In this document: positions 18,460 to 52,374 of the stretch, in pieces
Layout of the letters: each line of letters starts with the position of its first letter
Numbering within the stretch: the first letter of the stretch is position 1
Assembly: GCA_003426165.1 (NCBI GenBank)
Contig: QUAH01000009.1
Coordinates: 64,620 to 128,619, forward strand
Direction of reading: 5' to 3'
DNA length: 64,000 nucleotides
DNA from: Candidatus Saccharicenans subterraneus
Lineage (GTDB): Bacteria > Acidobacteriota > Aminicenantia > Aminicenantales > Saccharicenantaceae
Notes under the pieces: model-generated
The model's input: the letters and a program-made list of their open reading frames with translations, nothing else
The model's database searches: none
What the model was told of the DNA's origin: nothing
Program-made: the position numbers and the translations under genes

Positions 18460-18963
18460 GTGAGCGAAGCCAAGAAAAAAGATGATTATCAGAAGGCGCT
18501 GGCCCTTTACAACCAGGGAATAAAGGATTTCCGCAAGAACGACTATGATAAGGCACTGGTTTCCTTCAGGGAGCTGGTGGAAACCTATCCAGAAGAACAC
18601 GAGCTGGTTGACCGGGCCAAGGTTTACATCAGCATCTGCGAGAGAGGTCCTAGGAAAGAGTCCATCTCTCCAAGGAATATCGAGGATTATCTTTTTTATG
18701 CCCAGATGAGAATCAACCAGGGAGACCATCAGGCCGCGCTGAAGCTGCTGGAGAAAGCCCTGGAGCTCAAAAGGGAGGAAGCCAGGGTTTACTACCTGAT
18801 GGCTACGGCCTATGTCCAGGCCGGACAGGTAGAAGAAGGACTGGAAGCTCTTAAGAAAGCTCTCCAGAAAGATAAGTCCCTGGCCGTCATGGCTCAGAAT
18901 GAGCCCGATTTCGAATCCATCTGGGAAGACAAAAGGTTTAAGGTCCTGGTCAAACTTTCATGA
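18460..18963 (+). CDS. tetratricopeptide-repeat protein
   Basis: Three or four TPR-like helical repeats ([11 protein letters not shown]..., [37 protein letters not shown]). GTG start with AGGAGA RBS. Its stop overlaps the next gene's ATG (ATGA). Confidence 0.7.
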
Positions 18964-20300
18964 AAAATAAACTCCTGGTTCTGGCCCGCGGGGATGAAGT
19001 CTTGGGCGGCCAGAAAAGAAACCTGCCTTCCATAATTTCTGCCCCTTCACTGCTGACCGGTCGTCTGGAAGTCTTGATGAAGCTCAGGCCGGAGAGAATA
19101 GGCTGGCTCGGGACTGAGACGGCCGAGACCGGGAAGTCCCGTAAAAAGTTTTTAAAGGTGCTCCCGGTTGGAGAGCTGACCTCTTCGCTGTCAGCCCTGT
19201 TGGAACGGATTAAGAAAGGAAGGTCAACCGGCGATCTCCTGCTCCTGTCACCAGAGTTTTTCCCCAAAGAAGCCGGCCTCTTAAAGAGATTGCTTAATTT
19301 TCACCAAAAATCGGGCAATGACCTTACCCTGGTTGGGGAACGCATAGGTTCTCACCAGGACCGATCGTCGGAAGATTATTTTGTTCATCCCGGGCTGGCC
19401 CTGGTCTCATATGACGGCCACCGCAAATGGCTGAGTCGGGTCCGGCCGTTCAAGCCTTCCGGTCAGCTCGACGTGGTGGCCCTGGTGGAGGCGGCCTGGG
19501 CCGCGGGACTCAGAATAGGTTTTTACTGGGTAAAGGAAACCGACAAGGATTTGTTCATCCCGGTTAATTCTCTATCCGACTATTCCCGGGTAGCTGAATT
19601 TCTCAGGCAGGCCAAGATAGCTGAACTGGAAAAACGGGGGGTGTTCTTCCTGGACCAGGCCTCGGTCTGGATTGACCCCAGGGCTAAAGTCGGTACAGGA
19701 ACGGTAATTTATCCCTCGGTTATCATTGAAGGCAGAAGCAGGGTTGGCAAAGATTGCCTGATATATCCACACTGTCACATCATCGACAGCCGGCTGGGAA
19801 ACAGGGTCAAGGTGTTTGGGGCCACGGTTATCGAAGGGTGCCGCATTGATAACGAAGCCCAGGTCGGTCCGTTTTCCAGGCTGCGGCCGGAGACCAGGCT
19901 GCGCCGGGGAAGCCATGTGGGCAATTTCGTGGAAATGAAGAAAACAGTCTTCGGCGAAGGTTCTAAAGCCATGCATCTCAGCTACCTGGGCGACACCAGG
20001 GTTGAGGAGAAAGTTAACGTGGGAGCCGGGACCATCACCTGCAATTATGATGGAATCAGGAAAAACAGGACGTTTATCGGTCGGGGAGCCTTTATAGGTT
20101 CCGGAACGGAACTGGTGGCTCCGGTCCGGGTGGGGCGTGGGGCCTATGTGGCTGCCGGCTCAACCATAACCGAGAACGTAAAACCCGGGGCGCTGGCCAT
20201 CGCCCGGACCCGGCAGGTGCAGAAACCGGGCTGGGCCAGGGAACGCAGGGCCAGCCTCCAGGCTGCCGGTAAAAAAGCAGCTAAAAAAAAGGGGAAATAA
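18960..20300 (+). CDS. GlmU-like bifunctional protein: bona fide C-terminal left-handed beta-helix acetyltransferase domain, N-terminal nucleotidyltransferase domain with degenerate signature motif
   Basis: The C-terminus aligns closely with GlmU ([79 protein letters not shown]). The N-terminus lacks the canonical L-x2-G-x-G-T-R-M motif and reads [17 protein letters not shown] instead. Confidence 0.7.
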
Positions 20301-20321
20301 TGTCCCTTCAGGAAGGGCGAT

Positions 20322-20963
20322 TCAGTCCCGGGGAGTAGCTTTCTTTTTTTCTACGCGATAAACGTGGGCAATTCTCTGGATGGCGGTCAGGTTGGAGACC
20401 ACGGCCAGTATGATGATGACCGCTATCATTACCGTGTCCCGGTGCCCGATAATCAGGGCCAGCAGGGTGCCGATAATGAGGAGCACCATTCTTTCAGCCC
20501 GCTGCATTATTCCCAGCTGGCAGCTGACTCCCAGGCTTTCAGCCCGGGCCTTGGTATAGCTGACCATGGTTGAACCGAGGAAGGCCAGGGCCAGGACCCA
20601 CAGGACCCAGTGAGGTCCGAAATAAAATCCCAGGCCGAGGTAGATGGCAAACTCCGAATAACGGTCCAGGCTGGAGTCGAAAACTGCCCCGAATACCGTC
20701 CGGCGATTGCTGTTGGTGGCCACCTTCCCGTCCAGAATGTCCAGCATCCCGCAAATTACCAGGAAGACCAGAGCCCAGCCCCACCTTCCCAGGGCAAAAA
20801 ACAATCCCACCAGCAGGCCGGCCAGAAGGCCCAGAAAGCTGAGCAGGTTTGGGCTCAGCTTCAAGCGAACCAGGAATAGAGAGAAACGGTCGAAGACTTC
20901 CAGGATGAAAACGATCAATTTTTTGGGAAGAAGCCTGAAACCTTTATTCTCATAGCTGACCAT
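20322..20963 (-). CDS. CDP-alcohol phosphatidyltransferase family membrane protein (candidate phosphatidylinositol-phosphate synthase)
   Basis: Signature D-G-x2-A-R-x8-G-x3-D-x3-D is present (DILDGKVATNSNRRTVFGAVFDSSLDRYSE). Multi-pass membrane protein. Divergent to the inositol-phosphate synthase gene. Confidence 0.8.
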   Translation of the reverse strand: MVSYENKGFRLLPKKLIVFILEVFDRFSLFLVRLKLSPNLLSFLGLLAGLLVGLFFALGRWGWALVFLVICGMLDILDGKVATNSNRRTVFGAVFDSSLDRYSEFAIYLGLGFYFGPHWVLWVLALAFLGSTMVSYTKARAESLGVSCQLGIMQRAERMVLLIIGTLLALIIGHRDTVMIAVIIILAVVSNLTAIQRIAHVYRVEKKKATPRD

Positions 20964-21402
20964 CGTTTCAGAATTATAATTATTATAGGTAAAAAAATCA
21001 ATTTGCCGATTTGCCTAAAAGAGAACCTATATAAAAGCGATTTATTGTACTGCGAGGAAATCCACGCGAAAATCAGTCGTTTTCGGGCCAGGCAGGGTGA
21101 AAACTCTCGGGATGAGATTGGTCAGAAGGCCAGGCGCTGAACTCGGTTAAGCCTGGGCCGGTCTGTTGTGGGCAGGGACAGCAGAAGGTTGTTTTGGTGG
21201 GCGGGCCTATCTTCTTTTATATTTATGGTTCAGATGCCGGGTCCAACAACTCCGGGCCAGCGCAGCCAGGAATCCGGCCCTGAAAAGAAAACTTGAAGAT
21301 AAAAAAGCAGTATGATAACCTTAAATCCACTTATTTTGATCAGCAAATTCTTGAGGCTATGAATCGGCTTTTCTCTTTATGATTTTAGTTGAGGAGGCGG
21401 TC
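20964..21402. promoter_or_regulatory. 439-bp divergent intergenic region between the phosphatidyltransferase and inositol-phosphate synthase genes
   Basis: No ORF of 60 aa or more. GC-rich central segment (about 21060..21300). GAGGAGG RBS at 21391..21397 ahead of the ATG at 21403. Confidence 0.3.
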
Positions 21403-22716
21403 ATGAAGGAAAAAATTGAAATCAAGAGTCCGGAAGGAAAACTTGGAGTCTTGATTCCAGGCATAGGGGCTGTGGCCACTACTTTCATGGCCGGGGTTTT
21501 TCTGGCCAGAAAGGGACTGGGCAAACCCTTTGGTTCTCTGACCCAGATGGGCACAATCCGGCTGGGTAAAAGGCCTGAAAAGAGGGTTCCCAGGATAAAG
21601 GATTTTGTGGAACTGGCTGATCTGAACGATCTGGTTTTTGCCGGCTGGGATATTTTCCCGGATAATGCCTACGAGGCCGCGGTCAAGGCCGGAGTGTTGA
21701 GGAAAGAACACCTGGAACCGGTCAGGGAAGAGCTGGAGCGAATAGAGCCGATGCCGGCAGTTTTTGACCGCAACTATGTCAAAAGGCTGGACGGGCCCAA
21801 TAAAAAGAACGGTGCCAACAAGTTCGAGCTGGCCCTCCAGTTAATGGAAGATATCAAGAAATTCAGGGAGGACAATTCTCTAAACCGCCTGGTCATGATC
21901 TGGTGCGCCAGCACCGAGGTTTACCTCAAGCCTGAACCGGTGCATCAGACTGTTGATTCCCTGGAAAAGGCCATGAAGGAAAACCATCCGGCTATCGCTC
22001 CGAGCATGATCTATGCTTATGCCGCCATTAAGTCGGGTGTGCCCTTTATCAACGGTGCCCCCAACCTGACCGTTGACATCCCGGCCATGGTGGAACTGGC
22101 CAGGCAGCATAATGTTCCCATAGCCGGAAAGGATTTCAAAACCGGGCAGACCCTGATGAAGACCATCGTGGCCCCGGGCCTCAAGGCCAGGTTGCTCGGG
22201 TTGCACGGCTGGTTTTCCACCAACATCCTGGGCAACCGGGATGGAGAAGTCCTGGACGACCCGGATTCCTTCAAGACCAAGGAAGAGAGCAAGCTCGGGG
22301 CCCTGGAATACATACTCCAGCCCGAACTCTATCCCGAGCTTTACGGGAAGTTTTACCACAAAGTCCGCATCAACTATTACCCGCCGCGCGGCGATAACAA
22401 GGAGGGCTGGGACAACATCGATATCTTCGGCTGGCTGGGTTATCCCATGCAGATAAAAATAGATTTTCTCTGCCGGGACAGCATCCTGGCCGCACCCATC
22501 GTGCTCGACCTGGTGCTGTTTATGGACCTGGCCCAGAGAGCCGGTTTCAGGGGAATCCAGGAGTGGCTGTCCTTCTATTTCAAGACCCCGATGTGCGCGC
22601 CCGAGCTCTACCCGGAACATGACCTGTTCATCCAGTTGATGAAGCTCAAGAATACGCTGCGTTACATGAAAGGCGAAGAGCTGATAACCCACCTGGGCCT
22701 GGAATATTACGATTGA
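21403..22716 (+). CDS. ino1: myo-inositol-1-phosphate synthase (inositol-3-phosphate synthase)
   Basis: N-terminal Rossmann GIGAVATTFMAGV, plus a catalytic-domain segment (SMIYAYAAIKSGVPFINGAPNL...AGKDFKTGQT) that I read as MIPS-like. Start moved to the ATG at 21403, which is preceded by GAGGAGG. The track's 21379 start has no RBS. Confidence 0.85.
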   Translation: MKEKIEIKSPEGKLGVLIPGIGAVATTFMAGVFLARKGLGKPFGSLTQMGTIRLGKRPEKRVPRIKDFVELADLNDLVFAGWDIFPDNAYEAAVKAGVLRKEHLEPVREELERIEPMPAVFDRNYVKRLDGPNKKNGANKFELALQLMEDIKKFREDNSLNRLVMIWCASTEVYLKPEPVHQTVDSLEKAMKENHPAIAPSMIYAYAAIKSGVPFINGAPNLTVDIPAMVELARQHNVPIAGKDFKTGQTLMKTIVAPGLKARLLGLHGWFSTNILGNRDGEVLDDPDSFKTKEESKLGALEYILQPELYPELYGKFYHKVRINYYPPRGDNKEGWDNIDIFGWLGYPMQIKIDFLCRDSILAAPIVLDLVLFMDLAQRAGFRGIQEWLSFYFKTPMCAPELYPEHDLFIQLMKLKNTLRYMKGEELITHLGLEYYD

Positions 22717-22798
22717 GGCTTGAGCCCGGTCGGGCCGGTTGACACCTGTTTTCATTTGTGAATTAATTATTTCTATTCTTTCTATTAAGAGGTTTAAG

Positions 22799-25700
22799 AT
22801 GGCTCAAAAAGCATTCCAGCTTAAAAAAACTTTCGTCTTTTTGATAATTCTGGCGGTTTTGTTCCTTGGCCTGGTGGCCCGGCCATCCTTCTCCCGGAGC
22901 AGCTATGACCTCAACAAGGAAAAAGTCCTGTTTACCGTGGGTTATGCCCACCTCGACACCCAGTGGCGCTGGGACTACCAGAAGACGATTAAAGAATACA
23001 TCTGGAATACCATGGTCGATAATTTTGCCCTGTTCGAGAAATATCCGAATTACGTTTTCAATTTCAGCGGGGCCAACCGCTACCGGATGATGAAGGAATA
23101 TTACCCGAAGGAATATGAGAAGGTTAAAGACTATGTGGCCAGGGGGCGCTGGTTTCCCTCTGGTTCCTCCATGGAAGAGAATGATGTCATGGCCCCGTCC
23201 TTTGAGTCCATCATCAGGCAGATTCTCTACGGCACCGAGTATTTCAAGAAGGAATTCGGGTTCAGCAGCAAGGAGTACATGCTGCCCGATTGCTTCGGTT
23301 TCCCGGCTTCTCTGCCTTCAATCCTGGCTCATTGCGGCCTGAAAGGCTTTTCCACCCAGAAGCTGACCTGGGGTTCGGCGGTCGGGGTTCCGTTCAACAT
23401 AGGCACCTGGTACGGTCCGGACGGGCAGTTCATAGTGGCTGCCCTCAACCCAGGTGATTACACCGGCAAGATAACCGGCGACCTGACCCAGAATCCGACC
23501 TGGAGGCTCAGGGTCAGCGAAAACGGGCAGAAGTACGGCGTCTTTGGTGATTACATGTATTTCGGCACCGGAGATGTCGGCGGGGCTCCGGAGGAAAACT
23601 CGGTCCGGAACCTGGAGCTGAGCCTGGAGAGCAGCAAGCAGTCAGACCTCAAGGTGGTCTCGTCCCGGGCCGACGAGTTTTTCCTGAACCTGAATGAAAC
23701 GCAGAAAAAAAGATTGCCCACCTACAGTGGCGAGTTCCTGCTGACCAACCACTCAGCTGGCTCGATCACTTCCCAGGCGGCCATGAAACGCTGGAACCGC
23801 AAGAACGAGTTCCTGGGCTATTCGACCGAAGCGGCGGCAGTGGTGGCCGACTGGCTGGGCGGGGCGGCCTACAACAGGGAAAAAATCAACGAGGCCTGGC
23901 GCCTGGTCCTCGGCGCCCAGTTTCATGATATTCTGCCCGGGACCAGCATTCCCCGGGCCTACGAGTTTTCCTGGAACGATGAAATCCTGGCGGCCAACCA
24001 GTTCAGCTCGGTCCTCAAAGATTCAGCCGGTGCGGTCATCCGGGCCCTGGACACCAGGGTGAGTGGCTACCCGGTGGTCGTCTATAACCCGCTGGCTTTT
24101 GACCGGGAAGACGTGGTGGAAACCGAGCTGGAATTGCCTCAGTCTGCTGACCAGCTGAGAGTTTTTGCTGCTGACGGTCGGGAAGTCCCGTCCCAGGTCC
24201 TTGGAAAAAATGAACGTACAGTCAGGCTGGCTTTCGTGGCCACCGTTCCGTCTCTCGGCTTTAGCGTTTACGATGTCAGGCCTTCATCTGAACCCTGCCG
24301 CCTGAATACCGGTTTAAGAGTTGGCCCTAACCTCCTGGAAAACGGCCGTTACCTGGTTAAGCTCAACAAAGATGGCGAAGTATCGAGCATCTTCGACAAG
24401 AAGGCCGGCCGGGAGCTGCTGGCCTCTTCCGCCAGGCTATCCTTCCACTATGAAAAGCCGCAGCAATGGCCGGCCTGGAACATGGACTGGGAAGACCGGA
24501 TGAAGCCGCCTGCCGGGTATGTGACCGGCCCGGCCAGGGTTACCGTCGTGGAAAACGGCCCGGCCAGGGTAGCCATAGAAATAGAGAGGGAAGCCCGTGG
24601 TTCCAGGTTTGTCCAGACCGTGCGCCTGGCGGCCGGCGGGGCGGGCGACCGGCTGGAATTTTATAACCTGATCGACTGGGCCACAAGGGAATCGTCTCTA
24701 AAAGCCGCCTTTCCCCTCACCGTTTCCAATCCCCTGGCCACCTACAACTGGGGGCTGGGGACCATTCAGCGGGGAAATAATGACCCAAAGAAATTCGAGG
24801 TGCCCTCGCACCTGTGGTTCGACCTGACCGATAAAAGCGGCAGTTACGGCGTTTCCATCCTGGAGGATTGCAAGTACGGTTCCGATAAGCCGGCCGACAA
24901 CATGCTGCGCCTGACGCTGCTTTATACACCTGGGGTTAGGTCCTGGCCCGGAGAGCAGGCCACCCAGGACTTCGGCCGGCATGAAATTCTTTACGCCGTT
25001 TACGGTCACCAGGGAGACTGGCGACAGGGCGGGACCGGACAGCAGGCCCTGCGGCTTAACCAGCCGCTCCTGGCCTTCCAGACTGTTGCCCATGAGGGCA
25101 GCCTGGGCAAGAATGTTTCTTTCCTGAGGGTCAGCCAGGATAACCTCCATATCTCGGCCGTGAAGAAGGCAGAAAATTCAGACGAGGTAATAATCAGGCT
25201 GGTCGAGACCAAAGGCCAGAGTTTAAAGAAAGCCACGCTGTCTTTCCTGACCGGAATCAGCGCAGCCCGCGAAGTCAACGGCGTGGAAGAGGAAGTCGGT
25301 CCGGCCCTGGTGCGCGAGGGCAAGCTGGTCTTTGATATTAATAGTTACGGAATTAAGACCTTCGCCTTAAAGCTTCTTCCTGCCACCAGTCCGTTGAACT
25401 CGCCGACATCAGTTGCGGTAGAACTCCCGTACAATGTGGATATCTTCAGCCACGACGAAAACCGCAAGGACGGTGCTTTTGATGACAGCGGGCGAAGCTT
25501 CCCGGCCGAATTGGTGCCGGATACCATCGTGACCGATAGCCTCAGCTTCAAGCTGGGTCCGAAAGAAGAAGGGGCCAAAAATGCTGTGGCCTGCCAGGGC
25601 CAGGAAATAGAGCTGCCGGACGGAAAGTTTAACCGCCTGTACATTCTGGCCGCTGCTTCCGCGGAAAATCAGAAAGGTCAATTCAAAGTAGGGGAAGAGG

Positions 25701-26815
25701 CCTTGGAGATTCCGGTGGCTTACTGGTCAGGCTTTATCGGACAGTGGGATAACCGGACCTGGGCCGAGGGCCCGACCGGAAAAATTGACTTTGACCGGGA
25801 TAAATATACCTACACCGGGGTTGTCCCGGGATATACCAGGCAGGACGAGGTAGCTTTTTTCACCACCCATCTCCATCATCCGGCTGAGGGCAATGAACCT
25901 TACATCTACGGATACGTGTTCAAGTATGCAATGGAGCTGCCGGCCGGAGTACGGAAGGTCAAGCTTCCGGTAAACCCGGCCATCAAGGTCCTGGCCATGA
26001 CCGTGGCCTGGAACGAAAATGACAACAGCCGGCCTGCCCGGAATCTCTTTGACGTGCTTAAGAGAGACCAGGCTGACTATGAAAGATGGCAGGTGGTCCC
26101 GATTCCAGTCATCAGTCCGGCCCGGGCTTATGTCAGTCCTTCCGAGCCGGCCAGCGTGAATATCAATGTTTCGCTGGAAGGGGCTGAGATTCGGTATACG
26201 CTGGATGGCAGCGAGCCGACCGAAAAGTCCCCGGTCTACGAGGGCCCGATAACCATCAAGGGCACGGCGGTTCTCAAAGCCCTGGCTTTTCACCCGAGGC
26301 GGCAGCCGAGCCCGGTGGCTTCAGCTTTTTACAGCCAGTCCTATCCCGTTAAAGACATCGTTTATTTCAGCCCGCCGGCTTCCTCCCGTCCGGGTGCGGC
26401 CGGAGAAAAGACTCTCATCGACCTGGTCAAGGCCAGGCCCGAGGCCAGGGACCAGAACTGGCAGGGTTACGAAGGCAATGACCTGGTGGTGGTCCTGGAC
26501 CTCGGCCGAAAGCAGGACCTCTACGAGCTGGAGCTCAGTTGCTTCGAGAATAATAATGCCAGGATTTTCCTTCCGGCCAGGGTGGAAGTGGAAGTATCGC
26601 TGGATGGCCGGAAGTTTGAAAAGGTAGCCGAAAAAGAATATGCCCTGCCGGAAAAGCCACAGGGACCGGCCCAGAAATCGCTATACGTTTCTCTGCGGGG
26701 TTCCGAAGGACGTTTTCTACGGATAAAAGCTATCAATGTTGGCACGGTTCCGGATGGCTTCCGCAATGCCGGTCAGAAAGCCTGGATGCTGTTTGACGAG
26801 CTGTATGTGAGGTAA
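22799..26815 (+). CDS. glycoside hydrolase family 38 alpha-mannosidase with long C-terminal accessory domains, secreted
   Basis: GH38 N-terminal catalytic domain (GYAHLDTQWRWDYQ...FNFSGANRY). Signal peptide after MAQKAFQLKKTFVFLIILAVLFLGLVA. The ~400-aa C-terminal extension looks like beta-sandwich or carbohydrate-binding modules. Confidence 0.8.
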   Translation: MAQKAFQLKKTFVFLIILAVLFLGLVARPSFSRSSYDLNKEKVLFTVGYAHLDTQWRWDYQKTIKEYIWNTMVDNFALFEKYPNYVFNFSGANRYRMMKEYYPKEYEKVKDYVARGRWFPSGSSMEENDVMAPSFESIIRQILYGTEYFKKEFGFSSKEYMLPDCFGFPASLPSILAHCGLKGFSTQKLTWGSAVGVPFNIGTWYGPDGQFIVAALNPGDYTGKITGDLTQNPTWRLRVSENGQKYGVFGDYMYFGTGDVGGAPEENSVRNLELSLESSKQSDLKVVSSRADEFFLNLNETQKKRLPTYSGEFLLTNHSAGSITSQAAMKRWNRKNEFLGYSTEAAAVVADWLGGAAYNREKINEAWRLVLGAQFHDILPGTSIPRAYEFSWNDEILAANQFSSVLKDSAGAVIRALDTRVSGYPVVVYNPLAFDREDVVETELELPQSADQLRVFAADGREVPSQVLGKNERTVRLAFVATVPSLGFSVYDVRPSSEPCRLNTGLRVGPNLLENGRYLVKLNKDGEVSSIFDKKAGRELLASSARLSFHYEKPQQWPAWNMDWEDRMKPPAGYVTGPARVTVVENGPARVAIEIEREARGSRFVQTVRLAAGGAGDRLEFYNLIDWATRESSLKAAFPLTVSNPLATYNWGLGTIQRGNNDPKKFEVPSHLWFDLTDKSGSYGVSILEDCKYGSDKPADNMLRLTLLYTPGVRSWPGEQATQDFGRHEILYAVYGHQGDWRQGGTGQQALRLNQPLLAFQTVAHEGSLGKNVSFLRVSQDNLHISAVKKAENSDEVIIRLVETKGQSLKKATLSFLTGISAAREVNGVEEEVGPALVREGKLVFDINSYGIKTFALKLLPATSPLNSPTSVAVELPYNVDIFSHDENRKDGAFDDSGRSFPAELVPDTIVTDSLSFKLGPKEEGAKNAVACQGQEIELPDGKFNRLYILAAASAENQKGQFKVGEEALEIPVAYWSGFIGQWDNRTWAEGPTGKIDFDRDKYTYTGVVPGYTRQDEVAFFTTHLHHPAEGNEPYIYGYVFKYAMELPAGVRKVKLPVNPAIKVLAMTVAWNENDNSRPARNLFDVLKRDQADYERWQVVPIPVISPARAYVSPSEPASVNINVSLEGAEIRYTLDGSEPTEKSPVYEGPITIKGTAVLKALAFHPRRQPSPVASAFYSQSYPVKDIVYFSPPASSRPGAAGEKTLIDLVKARPEARDQNWQGYEGNDLVVVLDLGRKQDLYELELSCFENNNARIFLPARVEVEVSLDGRKFEKVAEKEYALPEKPQGPAQKSLYVSLRGSEGRFLRIKAINVGTVPDGFRNAGQKAWMLFDELYVR

Positions 26816-28616: not shown

Positions 28617-29048
28617 ATGGCCGGAAAAGAAACCATTGTGGCCGACTGGCTGGATGGCGTGGCTTTTGAAACAGCCGTGGATGAACACCGGATAATTCTC
28701 GATACTCCCCAGGATTTCGGGGGCAAAAACCGTGGCCCACGGCCCAAGCCGCTGCTGCTGGTGGCCCTGGCCGGCTGTACCGGCATGGACGTGATCTCCA
28801 TGTTGCAGAAGATGAGGGTGCCGGTGGAGAAATTCAGGGTGGTGGTTGAGGGCGACCTGACGGCCGAGCATCCCAAACAATTCTACCGCATTCATCTCGT
28901 CTATGAATTTACCGGGAAAAACCTGCCGCCCGAAAAACTCAGGCAGGCCATAGAGCTATCGCAGGAGAAGTACTGCGGGGTCAGCGCCACCATCAAGAAA
29001 GCCATGCCCCTGACCTGGGAAATGAGGATAACGAGCTCCGAGGGCTGA
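28617..29048 (+). CDS. OsmC/Ohr family peroxiredoxin-like protein
   Basis: OsmC fold motifs (LLLVALAGCTGMDV, EKYCGVSATI) with two conserved Cys. Confidence 0.8.
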   Translation: MAGKETIVADWLDGVAFETAVDEHRIILDTPQDFGGKNRGPRPKPLLLVALAGCTGMDVISMLQKMRVPVEKFRVVVEGDLTAEHPKQFYRIHLVYEFTGKNLPPEKLRQAIELSQEKYCGVSATIKKAMPLTWEMRITSSEG

Positions 29049-29138
29049 GGTTTTAAGCCTGGCGATGGATTTTTTTAAAAGTCAATTCTCTTAACACCGG
29101 GGATAAACGTCCAGGCCGGGGAATAAGGATAAACCAGA

Positions 29139-29351
29139 TTATTCCGTCTTTTCTTTTTCGGCAGATTCTTCGGGTTCCCGGTCGCGGGGTGGCCGGCGTC
29201 GTGGGCAGGAGGTCACGGGGCAAACCGCGCAGTCAGACTTTTTATCTAATTCAGCGTAGAATTTCTTGATAAATTCTTTGAGTTCTTCGTCGCTCATCCG
29301 GCTAAGGTCTTTCTCGTCCATGGGTTTCCTTCTCTCAAAATCTGCTTTCAA
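29139..29351 (-). CDS. small charged protein with a CxxCPxxxC motif (hypothetical)
   Basis: 70-aa ORF. Overlaps the stop of the upstream hemerythrin gene by 4 nt. K/E-rich with CAVCPVTSC. Confidence 0.35.
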   Translation of the reverse strand: MKADFERRKPMDEKDLSRMSDEELKEFIKKFYAELDKKSDCAVCPVTSCPRRRPPRDREPEESAEKEKTE

Positions 29352-29917: not shown

Positions 29918-30251
29918 TTTCCCCTCCCACATCCAGATTAGACCCCGCGGTCTGGTCTGTCAATCAGGCCTGGCGGCAAAGCGGGTGATTCCTGAAGGGT
30001 TTGGATTTAACGAATGATCTGAATTTTTCCCTGATCGGGGCGATAATTCTGGTGAAAAATAGATTTTCACGGGATTGTTTTTCCTTATTCCTTATCCGTC
30101 TCGGCCAGACTGGGTCTGGTCGTCTGAAGGCGGGGCGAGCCGTTTGATTTAGGATGACTGGAAAGATACTTGCAGGCAGCGCTGTTGCTCAACAGCCGGG
30201 AATATGGAAAACAGGAAGGTGGAAAGTAAGTTGACTGGGAATACAGAGAAA

Positions 30252-30337
30252 TGCCGAGGGCCGGACTCGAACCGGCACGGAGTTTACACCCCGAGGGATT
30301 TTAAGTCCCTTGCGTCTACCAATTCCGCCACCCCGGC
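30252..30337 (-). tRNA. tRNA-Leu (anticodon UAA), class II with long variable arm
   Basis: Reverse complement GCCGGGGTGGCGGAATTGGTAGACGCAAGGGACTTAAAATCCC...GGTTCGAGTCCGGCCCTCGGCA. Anticodon loop CTTAAAA. CCA not encoded. Confidence 0.85.
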
Positions 30338-30541
30338 GGCTCCTGATAATTTAAACACAATCGGGCAGGCCGGTCAACACTTCCACTTCGCTTGGTGACC
30401 TAAAGGTCTTTTTAGGCTAGTTAAATCCCTGGGGGTTCCGGGACCTGTTAAATAAAAGAACCCCCGCATATTTGGGCGCAGATTTTTCAGCCCCGATCGC
30501 CTTCAGATTAGGGTCACGGCAAGGGGAATTGCCTGGTCAGT

Positions 30542-50410: not shown

Positions 50411-50944
50411 CCCGGTATTAAAAACGACTTCCCCCCAGGTTCTGGCGCAGGCGCCGAATCCTCTGCCCTCAAAGACCGTTCCGTCCTTGAGGACCAGCCC
50501 AGCGTACTTCGTGCTTCATCCTCCAGAAATTTTTCTGACTTTAGCATAATTCCGAGGGCCTGGCAAGACCGGTGGAAAAATTAAAGGACCATTTTGCCGT
50601 GAAATCAGGCACGAAAATTTGTGCGATGTTTAGGTCTTGGAATCTGCTAAATCATATAGTAGCTCTATGTTAATTGATGGGAATGAGGTATCTCAGCGAA
50701 CTGATTGAAGTGATTATAATTACCGGTCCAATATACAAAAAGCCAGACAGGATGAAAGCAAATTTGAGGCACACCGATTTAAAACTTATAAGGCCACTTT
50801 GATTTCCTTAAACAGGAAAAAATTTCTGCCTATTCCGATTCATAGACAGAGATTGTCGGGTTGATATTTATCGAAACGACAATATTTTCCCTGAATATAA
50901 GATTGTTTGAAGGTTGCCTGGGAATCGATGCTGGCGGGCCCTTT

Positions 50945-51883: not shown

Positions 51884-52374
51884 ATCGAATTACCTCCTTT
51901 TAGCTCATATAACGATAAGAATTATGATCGATTTCAGTATTTACTTTTTCCCAAAATTTCAGCTCCCCTAACGTTCAATCTCAAAAAAATAAATAAAGTC
52001 CAAACGCGATTCTGTCAAGTGCATGAAACATTAAATTAGTTTTTAGCTTGACCCGCAAACAGGGGAAAATGGACAGCAAGCCCAGGAATATTTCCTTTCC
52101 CTGAGGGGAATAGGAGGGGGGAAAACCAGAAGGGGTCTTTTTCTTCAATTTATAATTGGCTGGGTGGTTTAGGCTCCTGGCCGGGTCGGCGGGCAGGCCG
52201 CAGTCTGGTGTAAAAAATCTTTATGGTGAGAAAGAATTTTTATATCAGGGCAGGAAGGGAAGCACAGCCCCGTAATCCTGTTTCCCCTTATCCAGATAGA
52301 ACCTGTCGCCGGCTCAGCTCACCCGGGCTGGCACGAAAGTTGCTTTTTCATAGGGTGGAAACAGGGGGTGAGCA

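Follow-up and report, generated by a model that had tools for sequence, protein, structure and literature searches.

A probable inositol phospholipid gene pair in Candidatus Saccharicenans subterraneus, with a phosphatidylinositol-phosphate synthase-like transferase that lacks the signature arginine

Inositol lipids are generally regarded as a rarity among bacteria, and a divergent gene pair in Candidatus Saccharicenans subterraneus raises the question whether this lineage, too, makes them. The pair is located in a 64,000-nucleotide stretch of contig QUAH01000009.1 (positions 64,620 to 128,619 of the forward strand; the whole stretch is referred to here as the window) and consists of a gene for a CDP-alcohol phosphotransferase (hereafter, the transferase) on the minus strand and a gene for myo-inositol-1-phosphate (inositol-3-phosphate) synthase (MIPS) on the plus strand; both open reading frames (ORFs) of the divergent pair claimed in an earlier, sequence-only reading of this DNA are present at the coordinates given there. 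We conclude that the two genes probably constitute a two-gene module for the production of an inositol phospholipid via the bacterial two-step route. This conclusion is based on family assignment and fold, on conserved catalytic and substrate-binding residues, on purifying selection and on the recurrent linkage of the genes; from these we infer the substrates and products. The sequence-only reading had taken the pair for a kit for making phosphatidylinositol phosphate (PIP), and in silico this is supported by profile scores, fold, conserved residues and linkage with MIPS.

Results

Family assignment and fold of the transferase

The transferase matches Pfam family PF01066 with 58.1 bits (cut-off 22) over 147 of the 152 profile positions. 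When scored with the NCBIfam curated models, the transferase gave the highest value, 150 bits, with archaetidylinositol-phosphate synthase (AIPS, NF040950), followed by the BT_1523-type PIP synthase (PIPS) model (NF052561; 119.5 bits) and the actinobacterial PIPS model (NF045883; 118 bits), with 30 bits for ClsA and 18 bits for PssA. The PIPS of Mycobacterium tuberculosis scores 137 bits with the AIPS model, a BT_1523-type Bacteroidota protein 134 bits and other bacterial homologues 145–174 bits; the AIPS model is superfamily-generic and, therefore, its top score says nothing on an archaeal-type lipid donor. An archaeal-type function, considered on the strength of that score, was rejected because the M. 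tuberculosis and BT_1523-type proteins score about equally. By its profile scores, the transferase is a member of the PIPS/AIPS superfamily that belongs to a bacterial subfamily without a curated model.

Among proteins of solved structure, the top sequence matches of the transferase are PIP synthases (5D92, 1.3e-20; 6H53, 1.2e-15), with the enzymes of Renibacterium salmoninarum and M. tuberculosis coming first. The AlphaFold model (pLDDT 82, pTM 0.77) consists of one juxtamembrane helix and six transmembrane helices (residues 14-33, 38-58, 61-84, 90-115, 120-143, 155-172 and 175-208). In a Foldseek search with this model, ranks 1–14 are all occupied by PIP synthases, with TM-scores between 0.70 and 0.79, and AF2299 and DIPPS come next. 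In a neighbor-joining (NJ) tree with Kimura-distance bootstrap, rooted on Escherichia coli PgsA, PIPS-type proteins group together, far from PgsA, and all 40 bootstraps recover the Aminicenantes sequences as a clade.

The signature and the substrate-binding residues of the transferase are retained with one exception. The signature of CDP-alcohol phosphotransferases is found as D75xxD78G79xxA82(T83)...G92xxxD96xxxD100, such that seven of its eight residues (D75, D78, G79, A82, G92, D96 and D100) are kept and the arginine is replaced by T83. Hence the D-G-x2-A-R signature claimed in the sequence-only reading has to be amended: the segment reads DGKVA-T, with threonine in place of the arginine of A-R. 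No substitution is seen among the four metal-binding or catalytic aspartates, the two glycines or the acceptor-site residues. The phosphate of inositol phosphate is bound in M. tuberculosis PIPS by two arginines, R155, which is part of an RxxR motif, and R195 (Clarke et al., PMC4634129); these residues align to R158 (in R155-A-E-R158) and R197 (in Q196-R197) of the transferase, both of which show no variation in alignment A1 and are kept by most homologues. Three further residues of the M. tuberculosis enzyme, R94, Y133 and R137, which were mutated to probe the binding mode of docked inositol phosphate (Grave et al., PMC6506517), align to R101, Y136 and R140. Because the acceptor-site residues of M. 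tuberculosis PIPS are conserved, inositol phosphate, and not free inositol, is the most likely acceptor. A PNxxS motif (P38-N39-x-x-S42) is located at the first transmembrane helix, and its P38 and N39 are invariant in the same alignment.

The inositol phosphate synthase

Both domains of the MIPS ORF score above their cut-offs (PF07994, 3e-107, 359 bits; PF01658, 2.7e-30, 105 bits). In the alignment to yeast MIPS, residues K369, K373, K412, K489, D320, D356, D438, N350 and N354 are all conserved, and D320, D356 and D438 are taken here to be active-site residues; the lysines and aspartates correspond to K301, K305, K341, K402, D252, D288 and D367 in the numbering of the 445-aa ORF. The loss of catalytic lysines and aspartates, which the sequence-only reading had named as counter-evidence, is not observed, all equivalents of the yeast residues being present. 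Yeast S323 is replaced, conservatively, by threonine (T255). Residues S323, G324, K369, K373, K412 and K489 of the yeast enzyme are listed as important in MIPS catalysis (PMC8287684). The closest structural database match is 7NWR (8.5e-175, 62% identity over 420 aligned residues), an entry mentioned in the publication on the crystal structure and in vitro activity of Bacteroides thetaiotaomicron BT_1526 (PMC9246714).

A longer version of the MIPS ORF, 445 aa (21379-22716, plus strand), begins at an in-frame upstream ATG at 21379. Translation most likely starts at the ATG at 21403, and the upstream ATG is unlikely to be used, because a GAGGAGG site precedes the former by 5 nt, relatives are called at 437 aa and the sequence preceding this ATG is invariant. 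Specifically, GGAGG.GGTC before the ATG is identical among the relatives in the alignment of orthologous loci.

Linkage of the transferase with two types of MIPS

A scan of GTDB species genomes identified relatives of the transferase in at least 596 stretches, from which 80 loci, with up to 7 kb on each side, were kept. Among the matches listed, relatives were found in Aminicenantes, Zixibacteria, Ignavibacteria, Gemmatimonadota, Acidobacteriota, Binatia, Thermodesulfobacteriota, Chloroflexota, Nitrospinota and Bacteroidota. With at least 596 such stretches, the earlier statement that inositol lipids are uncommon in bacteria is weaker than it was put.

A MIPS gene was detected in 30 of the 80 loci, 14 of the long type and 16 of the short type. 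The long-type gene is divergent from the transferase gene in Saccharicenans, adjacent and co-directional in Gemmatimonadota, and located about 3.4 kb upstream in Bacteroidota, with a PgpA-like gene in between. The short, Ino1/archaeal-like MIPS ('IRVAIIGVGNCASS', ~370-396 aa) lies, in most of its 16 loci, immediately downstream of the transferase homologue (L005, L009, L012, L014 and L015 in Aminicenantes; also L016-L018, L023, L024, L027, L029 and L030; Zixibacteria and Ignavibacteria are included) and shares just 23% identity with the window MIPS across 199 residues. Within Aminicenantes, one type takes the place of the other, and the short type is found also within the clade of transferases that lack the signature arginine. 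That the transferase is paired, depending on the lineage, with either of two distantly related types of MIPS speaks strongly, on comparative grounds, for its use of the MIPS product. The arrangement seen in the window is conserved in loci L001, L002 and L081-L086.

Several loci carry additional genes next to the transferase homologue. In five Bacteroidota loci (L048, L059, L061, L069 and L073), the PIPS homologue is the N-terminal part of an ORF of 433-462 aa, which may encode PIPS fused to a second domain. A PgpA-like gene is located downstream of MIPS in Bacteroidota loci L048, L058 and L073, as in B. thetaiotaomicron, and is present also in L059 and L061, where MIPS was not detected. In other Aminicenantes, the transferase gene, or the transferase gene and the short MIPS gene, are followed by a gene for a protein of ~940 aa with an N-terminus that by eye resembles outer-membrane receptors (L007, 7682-10498; L010, 7644-10466; L013, 3568-6408; L014, 8819-11641); the window encodes no homologue. 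The inositol cluster of B. thetaiotaomicron is accompanied by a gene for a carboxypeptidase-regulatory-like protein, BT_1527 (PMC9246714).

Clade-wide loss of the signature arginine

The signature arginine is absent in the transferase, in all 120 of its closest cluster representatives and in 15 of 15 GTDB loci of the Aminicenantes clade; it is kept in 65 of 65 homologues from other phyla, in the PIPS of R. salmoninarum and M. tuberculosis, and in E. coli PgsA. In M. tuberculosis PIPS, this residue, R76, helps to coordinate the alpha-phosphoryl group of CDP-diacylglycerol (PMC6506517). Within the clade without the arginine, the residue that follows the DG pair, Lys80 in the window protein, is lysine in 117 of 120 members. 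Comparison with four orthologues gave ratios of nonsynonymous to synonymous substitution rates (dN/dS) of 0.075-0.10, indicative of strong purifying selection; with dN/dS of ~0.1, an inactive transferase is therefore unlikely. In Candida albicans Cho1, the R133A mutant retained wild-type activity, and the authors suggest that neighboring basic residues make up for the loss (PMC8727905). We infer that the clade-fixed Lys80 may compensate for the lost arginine in a similar manner.

Proposed pathway and alternative explanations

Under the proposed route, MIPS would convert glucose-6-phosphate to L-myo-inositol-1-phosphate, with the use of NAD+, and the transferase, as a phosphatidylinositol-phosphate synthase, would transfer the phosphatidyl group of CDP-diacylglycerol to inositol phosphate, giving PIP. 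A phosphatase encoded outside the window would then dephosphorylate PIP to phosphatidylinositol.

Several observations weigh against this assignment. The transferase remains under all three equivalog cut-offs (150 vs. 180 bits for NF040950, 118 vs. 170 for NF045883 and 119.5 vs. 350 for NF052561), whereas positive controls exceed those of their own models (283 bits for M. tuberculosis PIPS and 411 bits for the protein of Bacteroidota locus L058). T83 replaces one of eight signature residues described as 'absolutely conserved'. The phylogeny is partial, in that the tree leaves out archaeal AIPS and DIPPS sequences, for which profile scores and fold ranks were used instead, and 50 of the 80 loci contain no MIPS gene in the fetched stretch, many of these being short contigs. 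Finally, among the 43 window ORFs scanned with Pfam and by BLASTP with E. coli PgpA, no PIP phosphatase of the PgpA type, the family of B. thetaiotaomicron PIP phosphatase BT_1525 (PMC9246714), was identified, and the same Pfam scans revealed no inositol-monophosphatase or NTP-transferase domain. The step from PIP to phosphatidylinositol is also without an assigned enzyme in mycobacteria (Clarke et al., PMC4634129).

Three other interpretations of the pair were weighed against the module. MIPS is also the first enzyme in the synthesis of di-myo-inositol phosphate (DIP), so that, if the transferase were a DIPP synthase, the pair would make this compatible solute from CDP-inositol, and no lipid. 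There is distant similarity between the transferase and the IPCT-DIPPS of Archaeoglobus fulgidus (4MND; 3.9e-05, TM-score 0.74). However, an inositol-phosphate cytidylyltransferase domain or gene was not found in the window, where no ORF matches an NTP-transferase Pfam family and the N-terminus of the neighboring GlmU-like protein is degenerate, and the DIPPS model, with a cut-off of 580 bits, gives 53 bits, compared to 118-150 bits with the PIPS and AIPS models; because of the missing cytidylyltransferase and this low score, the DIP alternative raised in the sequence-only reading is unsupported and, in our estimate, very improbable. In the Foldseek ranking, moreover, every PIP synthase structure is above DIPPS. 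A further point against DIP is that this solute is known from hyperthermophiles and homologues of the transferase are widespread in soil and sediment lineages. Even less credible, to the point of being nearly dismissible, is the function implied by public records, in which a 100% identical protein (P0001, from a metagenome-assembled genome of Candidatus Saccharicenans, Aminicenantes/OP8) and many relatives are named 'CDP-diacylglycerol--glycerol-3-phosphate 3-phosphatidyltransferase' by NCBI and JGI; if the transferase were indeed phosphatidylglycerophosphate synthase (PgsA), its adjacency to MIPS would be coincidental. The PgsA model PRK10832 yields 11 bits (E 0.3), the BLASTP alignment with E. 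coli PgsA is confined to 38 residues of the motif that the two have in common (E 0.01), and Foldseek gives TM-scores of 0.48-0.53 with E 0.06 or worse against Staphylococcus aureus PgsA (7DRJ/7DRK). E. coli PgsA is the distant outgroup of the NJ tree, at a distance of 2.5 from the transferase compared to 1.0-1.7 for PIPS-type proteins, and it lacks the SYT(K/R)ARAE and RxxR blocks that the transferase has in common with PIP synthases. Clustering with PgsA, a result that the sequence-only reading had put forward as evidence against its own assignment, is thus not seen in profile scores, fold comparison or tree, and the PgsA name in the public records likely represents systematic misannotation.

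The loss of the arginine, complete in the Aminicenantes clade and seen in no homologue from another phylum, along with the restriction of PgpA-like genes beside the cluster to Bacteroidota loci, could also be accommodated by an enzyme of the PIPS family with chemistry that has been altered or abolished, such that a different activated lipid serves as the donor or PIP is the end product. This we consider unlikely: the purifying selection speaks against a dead enzyme, the aspartates, glycines and acceptor-site residues are all in place, the Cho1 mutant has wild-type activity and Lys80 is near-universal in the clade, the linkage with MIPS continues within the clade that lacks it, and the mycobacterial PIPS gene is likewise without a linked PIP phosphatase. 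The preferred explanation, then, is the inositol phospholipid module. We also entertain a broader scenario, doubtful when taken as a whole, in which the enzymes of Aminicenantes would form a naturally occurring clade that functions without the signature arginine, the positive charge for the CDP alpha-phosphate having moved to Lys80, possibly with an altered donor (a different activated lipid) or altered product handling (PIP as the final membrane lipid, with no PgpA-type phosphatase linked), and in which inositol phospholipids would occur in this lineage and, judging by the spread of homologues, in many other phyla.

The intergenic spacer

The sequence-only reading had described the spacer between the two genes as 439 bp long, GC-rich and unusually long. 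The length is confirmed with the MIPS start at 21403 (it would be 415 bp with the start at 21379); the other two properties are not. The GC content of the spacer is 44.4% compared to 52.9% for the window, and only its central 221 bp (21070-21290) reach 55%. It is the sixth-longest gap in the window, where five gaps are longer, at 452-609 bp (29933-30541, 50411-50944, 42537-43048, 51884-52374 and 28896-29347).

Among orthologous loci, only the two ends of the spacer are conserved. At the transferase end, the block AATTATAATT..AAAAATCAA, which contains the putative transferase promoter, is invariant in five relatives; the distance from the -10 hexamer to the ATG is 9 nt, with no Shine-Dalgarno sequence, so that the transferase mRNA would be almost leaderless. 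At the MIPS end, the conserved block CTTGAA...TGATAA.CTTAAA is found, by eye, in the same arrangement in L001 and L002, and the putative MIPS promoter located here would yield a leader of ~75 nt. In loci L085 and L086, the spacer is 149 bp long and is devoid of the core, which is rich in indels among relatives. The two genes would be transcribed divergently from separate promoters at the spacer ends, and the core is best read as neutral, non-functional filler between divergent promoters.

The length of 439 bp and the central 221-bp stretch of higher GC content could, alternatively, mean that the spacer conceals something functional, for example a regulatory RNA, a small protein or a mobile element. 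We find this highly improbable given the poor conservation of the core in orthologous loci and its absence in two of them. A regulatory RNA was rejected on account of the lack of an Rfam match at E <=1, fold z-scores no better than those of shuffled sequences (+0.65 and +0.52 on the two strands) and an alignment with no conserved RNA structure (consensus energy of -2.9 kcal/mol, with a penalizing covariation term). A mobile element or repeat was rejected because no second copy is present in the window or in the loci and no terminal inverted repeats above chance were detected, the sole inverted repeat being an 11-nt pair of which ~1 is expected by chance by our own estimate. A small protein was rejected because no ORF reaches 50 aa (all are <=49 aa) and the core is full of indels.

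Gene neighborhood

The gene order is DnaG, LarB, a TPR protein, a GlmU-like protein and the transferase, followed by the divergent MIPS and a GH38 mannosidase-like protein (Table 1). The same order is observed in six contigs of relatives with transferases that are 87-93% identical, and also in the more distant loci L001 and L002.

In the GlmU-like protein, the C-terminal acetyltransferase domain is well conserved, residues 132-428 aligning to E. coli GlmU (1HV9); over the first ~131 residues there is no match to a GlmU of solved structure, and the N-terminus is degenerate at the LAAGKGTRM motif, such that the uridyltransferase domain of the Saccharicenans protein may be degenerate. A distant Aminicenantes relative (L004, 7906-9282) has a canonical GlmU start, ILAAGKGTRF, and an adjoining glmS gene. 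The GlmU-like and transferase genes are convergent, and the 21-bp gap between them contains a short GC hairpin (CCCTTCCTGAAGGG), which may be a terminator shared by the two genes.

The GH38 alpha-mannosidase-like gene begins 82 bp after MIPS and encodes an exported protein with CHB_HEX_C and Fn3_assoc domains. The arrangement of MIPS and GH38 is kept in Saccharicenans relatives, with a gap of 82 to 524 bp. As regards a possible operon of MIPS and GH38, a search of the gap between them for a terminator found none, but the GH38 gene has a promoter-like site of its own, TTGACA-17-ATTAAT, at 22739. Elsewhere in the window, two adjacent ORFs on the minus strand gave no Pfam match at E <=1e-5.

Table 1 Features of the inositol gene pair, its spacer and other genes of the window
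Feature	Position	Strand	Description
GlmU-like protein	18960-20300	+	
Hairpin, possible terminator	20304-20317		
PIP-synthase-like CDP-alcohol phosphotransferase	20322-20963	-	213 aa; Pfam PF01066 at 1.8e-15
Divergent spacer	20964-21402		439 bp, 44% GC; ends conserved and promoter-proximal, core fast-evolving
Transferase promoter, sigma-70-like, putative	20973-21001	-	TTGATT, 17 nt, TATAAT; promoter scan
Variable spacer core	21098-21279		no ORF >=50 aa, no repeat; absent in L085, L086
MIPS promoter, putative	21293-21321	+	TTGAAG, 17 nt with TG, TAACCT (extended -10); from conservation, not flagged by promoter scan
MIPS ribosome-binding site	21391-21397	+	GAGGAGG; 5 nt upstream of ATG 21403; read from sequence
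MIPS, long Bacteroides/eukaryote-like type	21403-22716	+	437 aa
GH38 alpha-mannosidase-like protein	22799-26815	+	1338 aa
ORF	35191-39183	-	1330 aa
ORF	39198-42536	-	1112 aa

Discussion

The analysis presented here predicts that Candidatus Saccharicenans and other Aminicenantes, an uncultured lineage that is abundant in sediments, aquifers and digesters, make inositol phospholipids. The pathway as such is known and is proposed here for a lineage from which it had not been described; the understanding of the pathway itself is unchanged. A literature search for Saccharicenans and phosphatidylinositol returned nothing relevant, although it did not cover every paper that names Aminicenantes and inositol. 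Because PIPS-like genes adjoin MIPS in Aminicenantes, Zixibacteria, Ignavibacteria, Gemmatimonadota and Bacteroidota, the capacity for inositol lipids may extend far beyond the actinobacterial and Bacteroides examples. The clade without the arginine amounts to a natural experiment on the signature of CDP-alcohol phosphotransferases, which is relevant to PIPS as a drug target. What goes beyond routine annotation is this clade-wide loss, the swap of MIPS types in Aminicenantes, the spread of PIPS-like genes across phyla and the misnaming of these proteins as PgsA.

Comparison with known systems

The gene cluster BT_1522-BT_1526 of B. thetaiotaomicron (Heaver et al. 2022, PMC9246714) resembles the window in its long-type MIPS, BT_1526 (7NWR), to which the window MIPS is 62% identical, and in the PIPS-family transferase, BT_1523, encoded nearby; the route, from glucose-6-phosphate via inositol phosphate and PIP-DAG to PI-DAG, is the same as that proposed here. 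However, the window transferase is not an equivalog of BT_1523 (119.5 bits against the cut-off of 350, compared to 411 for the Bacteroidota homologue in L058) and lacks the signature arginine, and the two genes are divergent in the window rather than co-directional. Furthermore, the window contains no PgpA-type phosphatase to fill the role of BT_1525, whereas PgpA-family genes were found in the Bacteroidota loci L048, L058, L059, L061 and L073, and there is no obvious IPC synthase.

The closest matches of the transferase are the actinobacterial PIP synthases of M. tuberculosis (PgsA1/Rv2612c), R. salmoninarum and Mycobacterium kansasii (6H53, 5D92 and 6WM5), with 25-31% identity and TM-scores of 0.70-0.79. 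These enzymes share with it the six-transmembrane fold and juxtamembrane helix, the phosphate-binding arginines and the equivalents of R94, Y133 and R137, and neither they nor the window transferase have a linked phosphatase gene. The differences are that the window transferase is below the NF045883 cut-off (118 vs. 170, with 283 for the M. tuberculosis control), has the long MIPS, not the short Ino1, as its partner, and has threonine in place of R76.

The archaeal comparisons are more remote. AIPS (NF040950) is the highest-scoring curated model and uses the same acceptor, inositol phosphate, but the score of 150 bits is below the cut-off of 180 and the host of the window is bacterial. The IPCT-DIPPS of A. 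fulgidus (4MND) resembles the transferase in its CDP-alcohol phosphotransferase fold and in its acceptor, inositol-1-phosphate; it differs in its cytidylyltransferase, of which the window contains neither domain nor gene, in the DIPPS model score (53 bits for the transferase against 580) and in its lower rank in both sequence and fold searches, where the PIP synthases come first.

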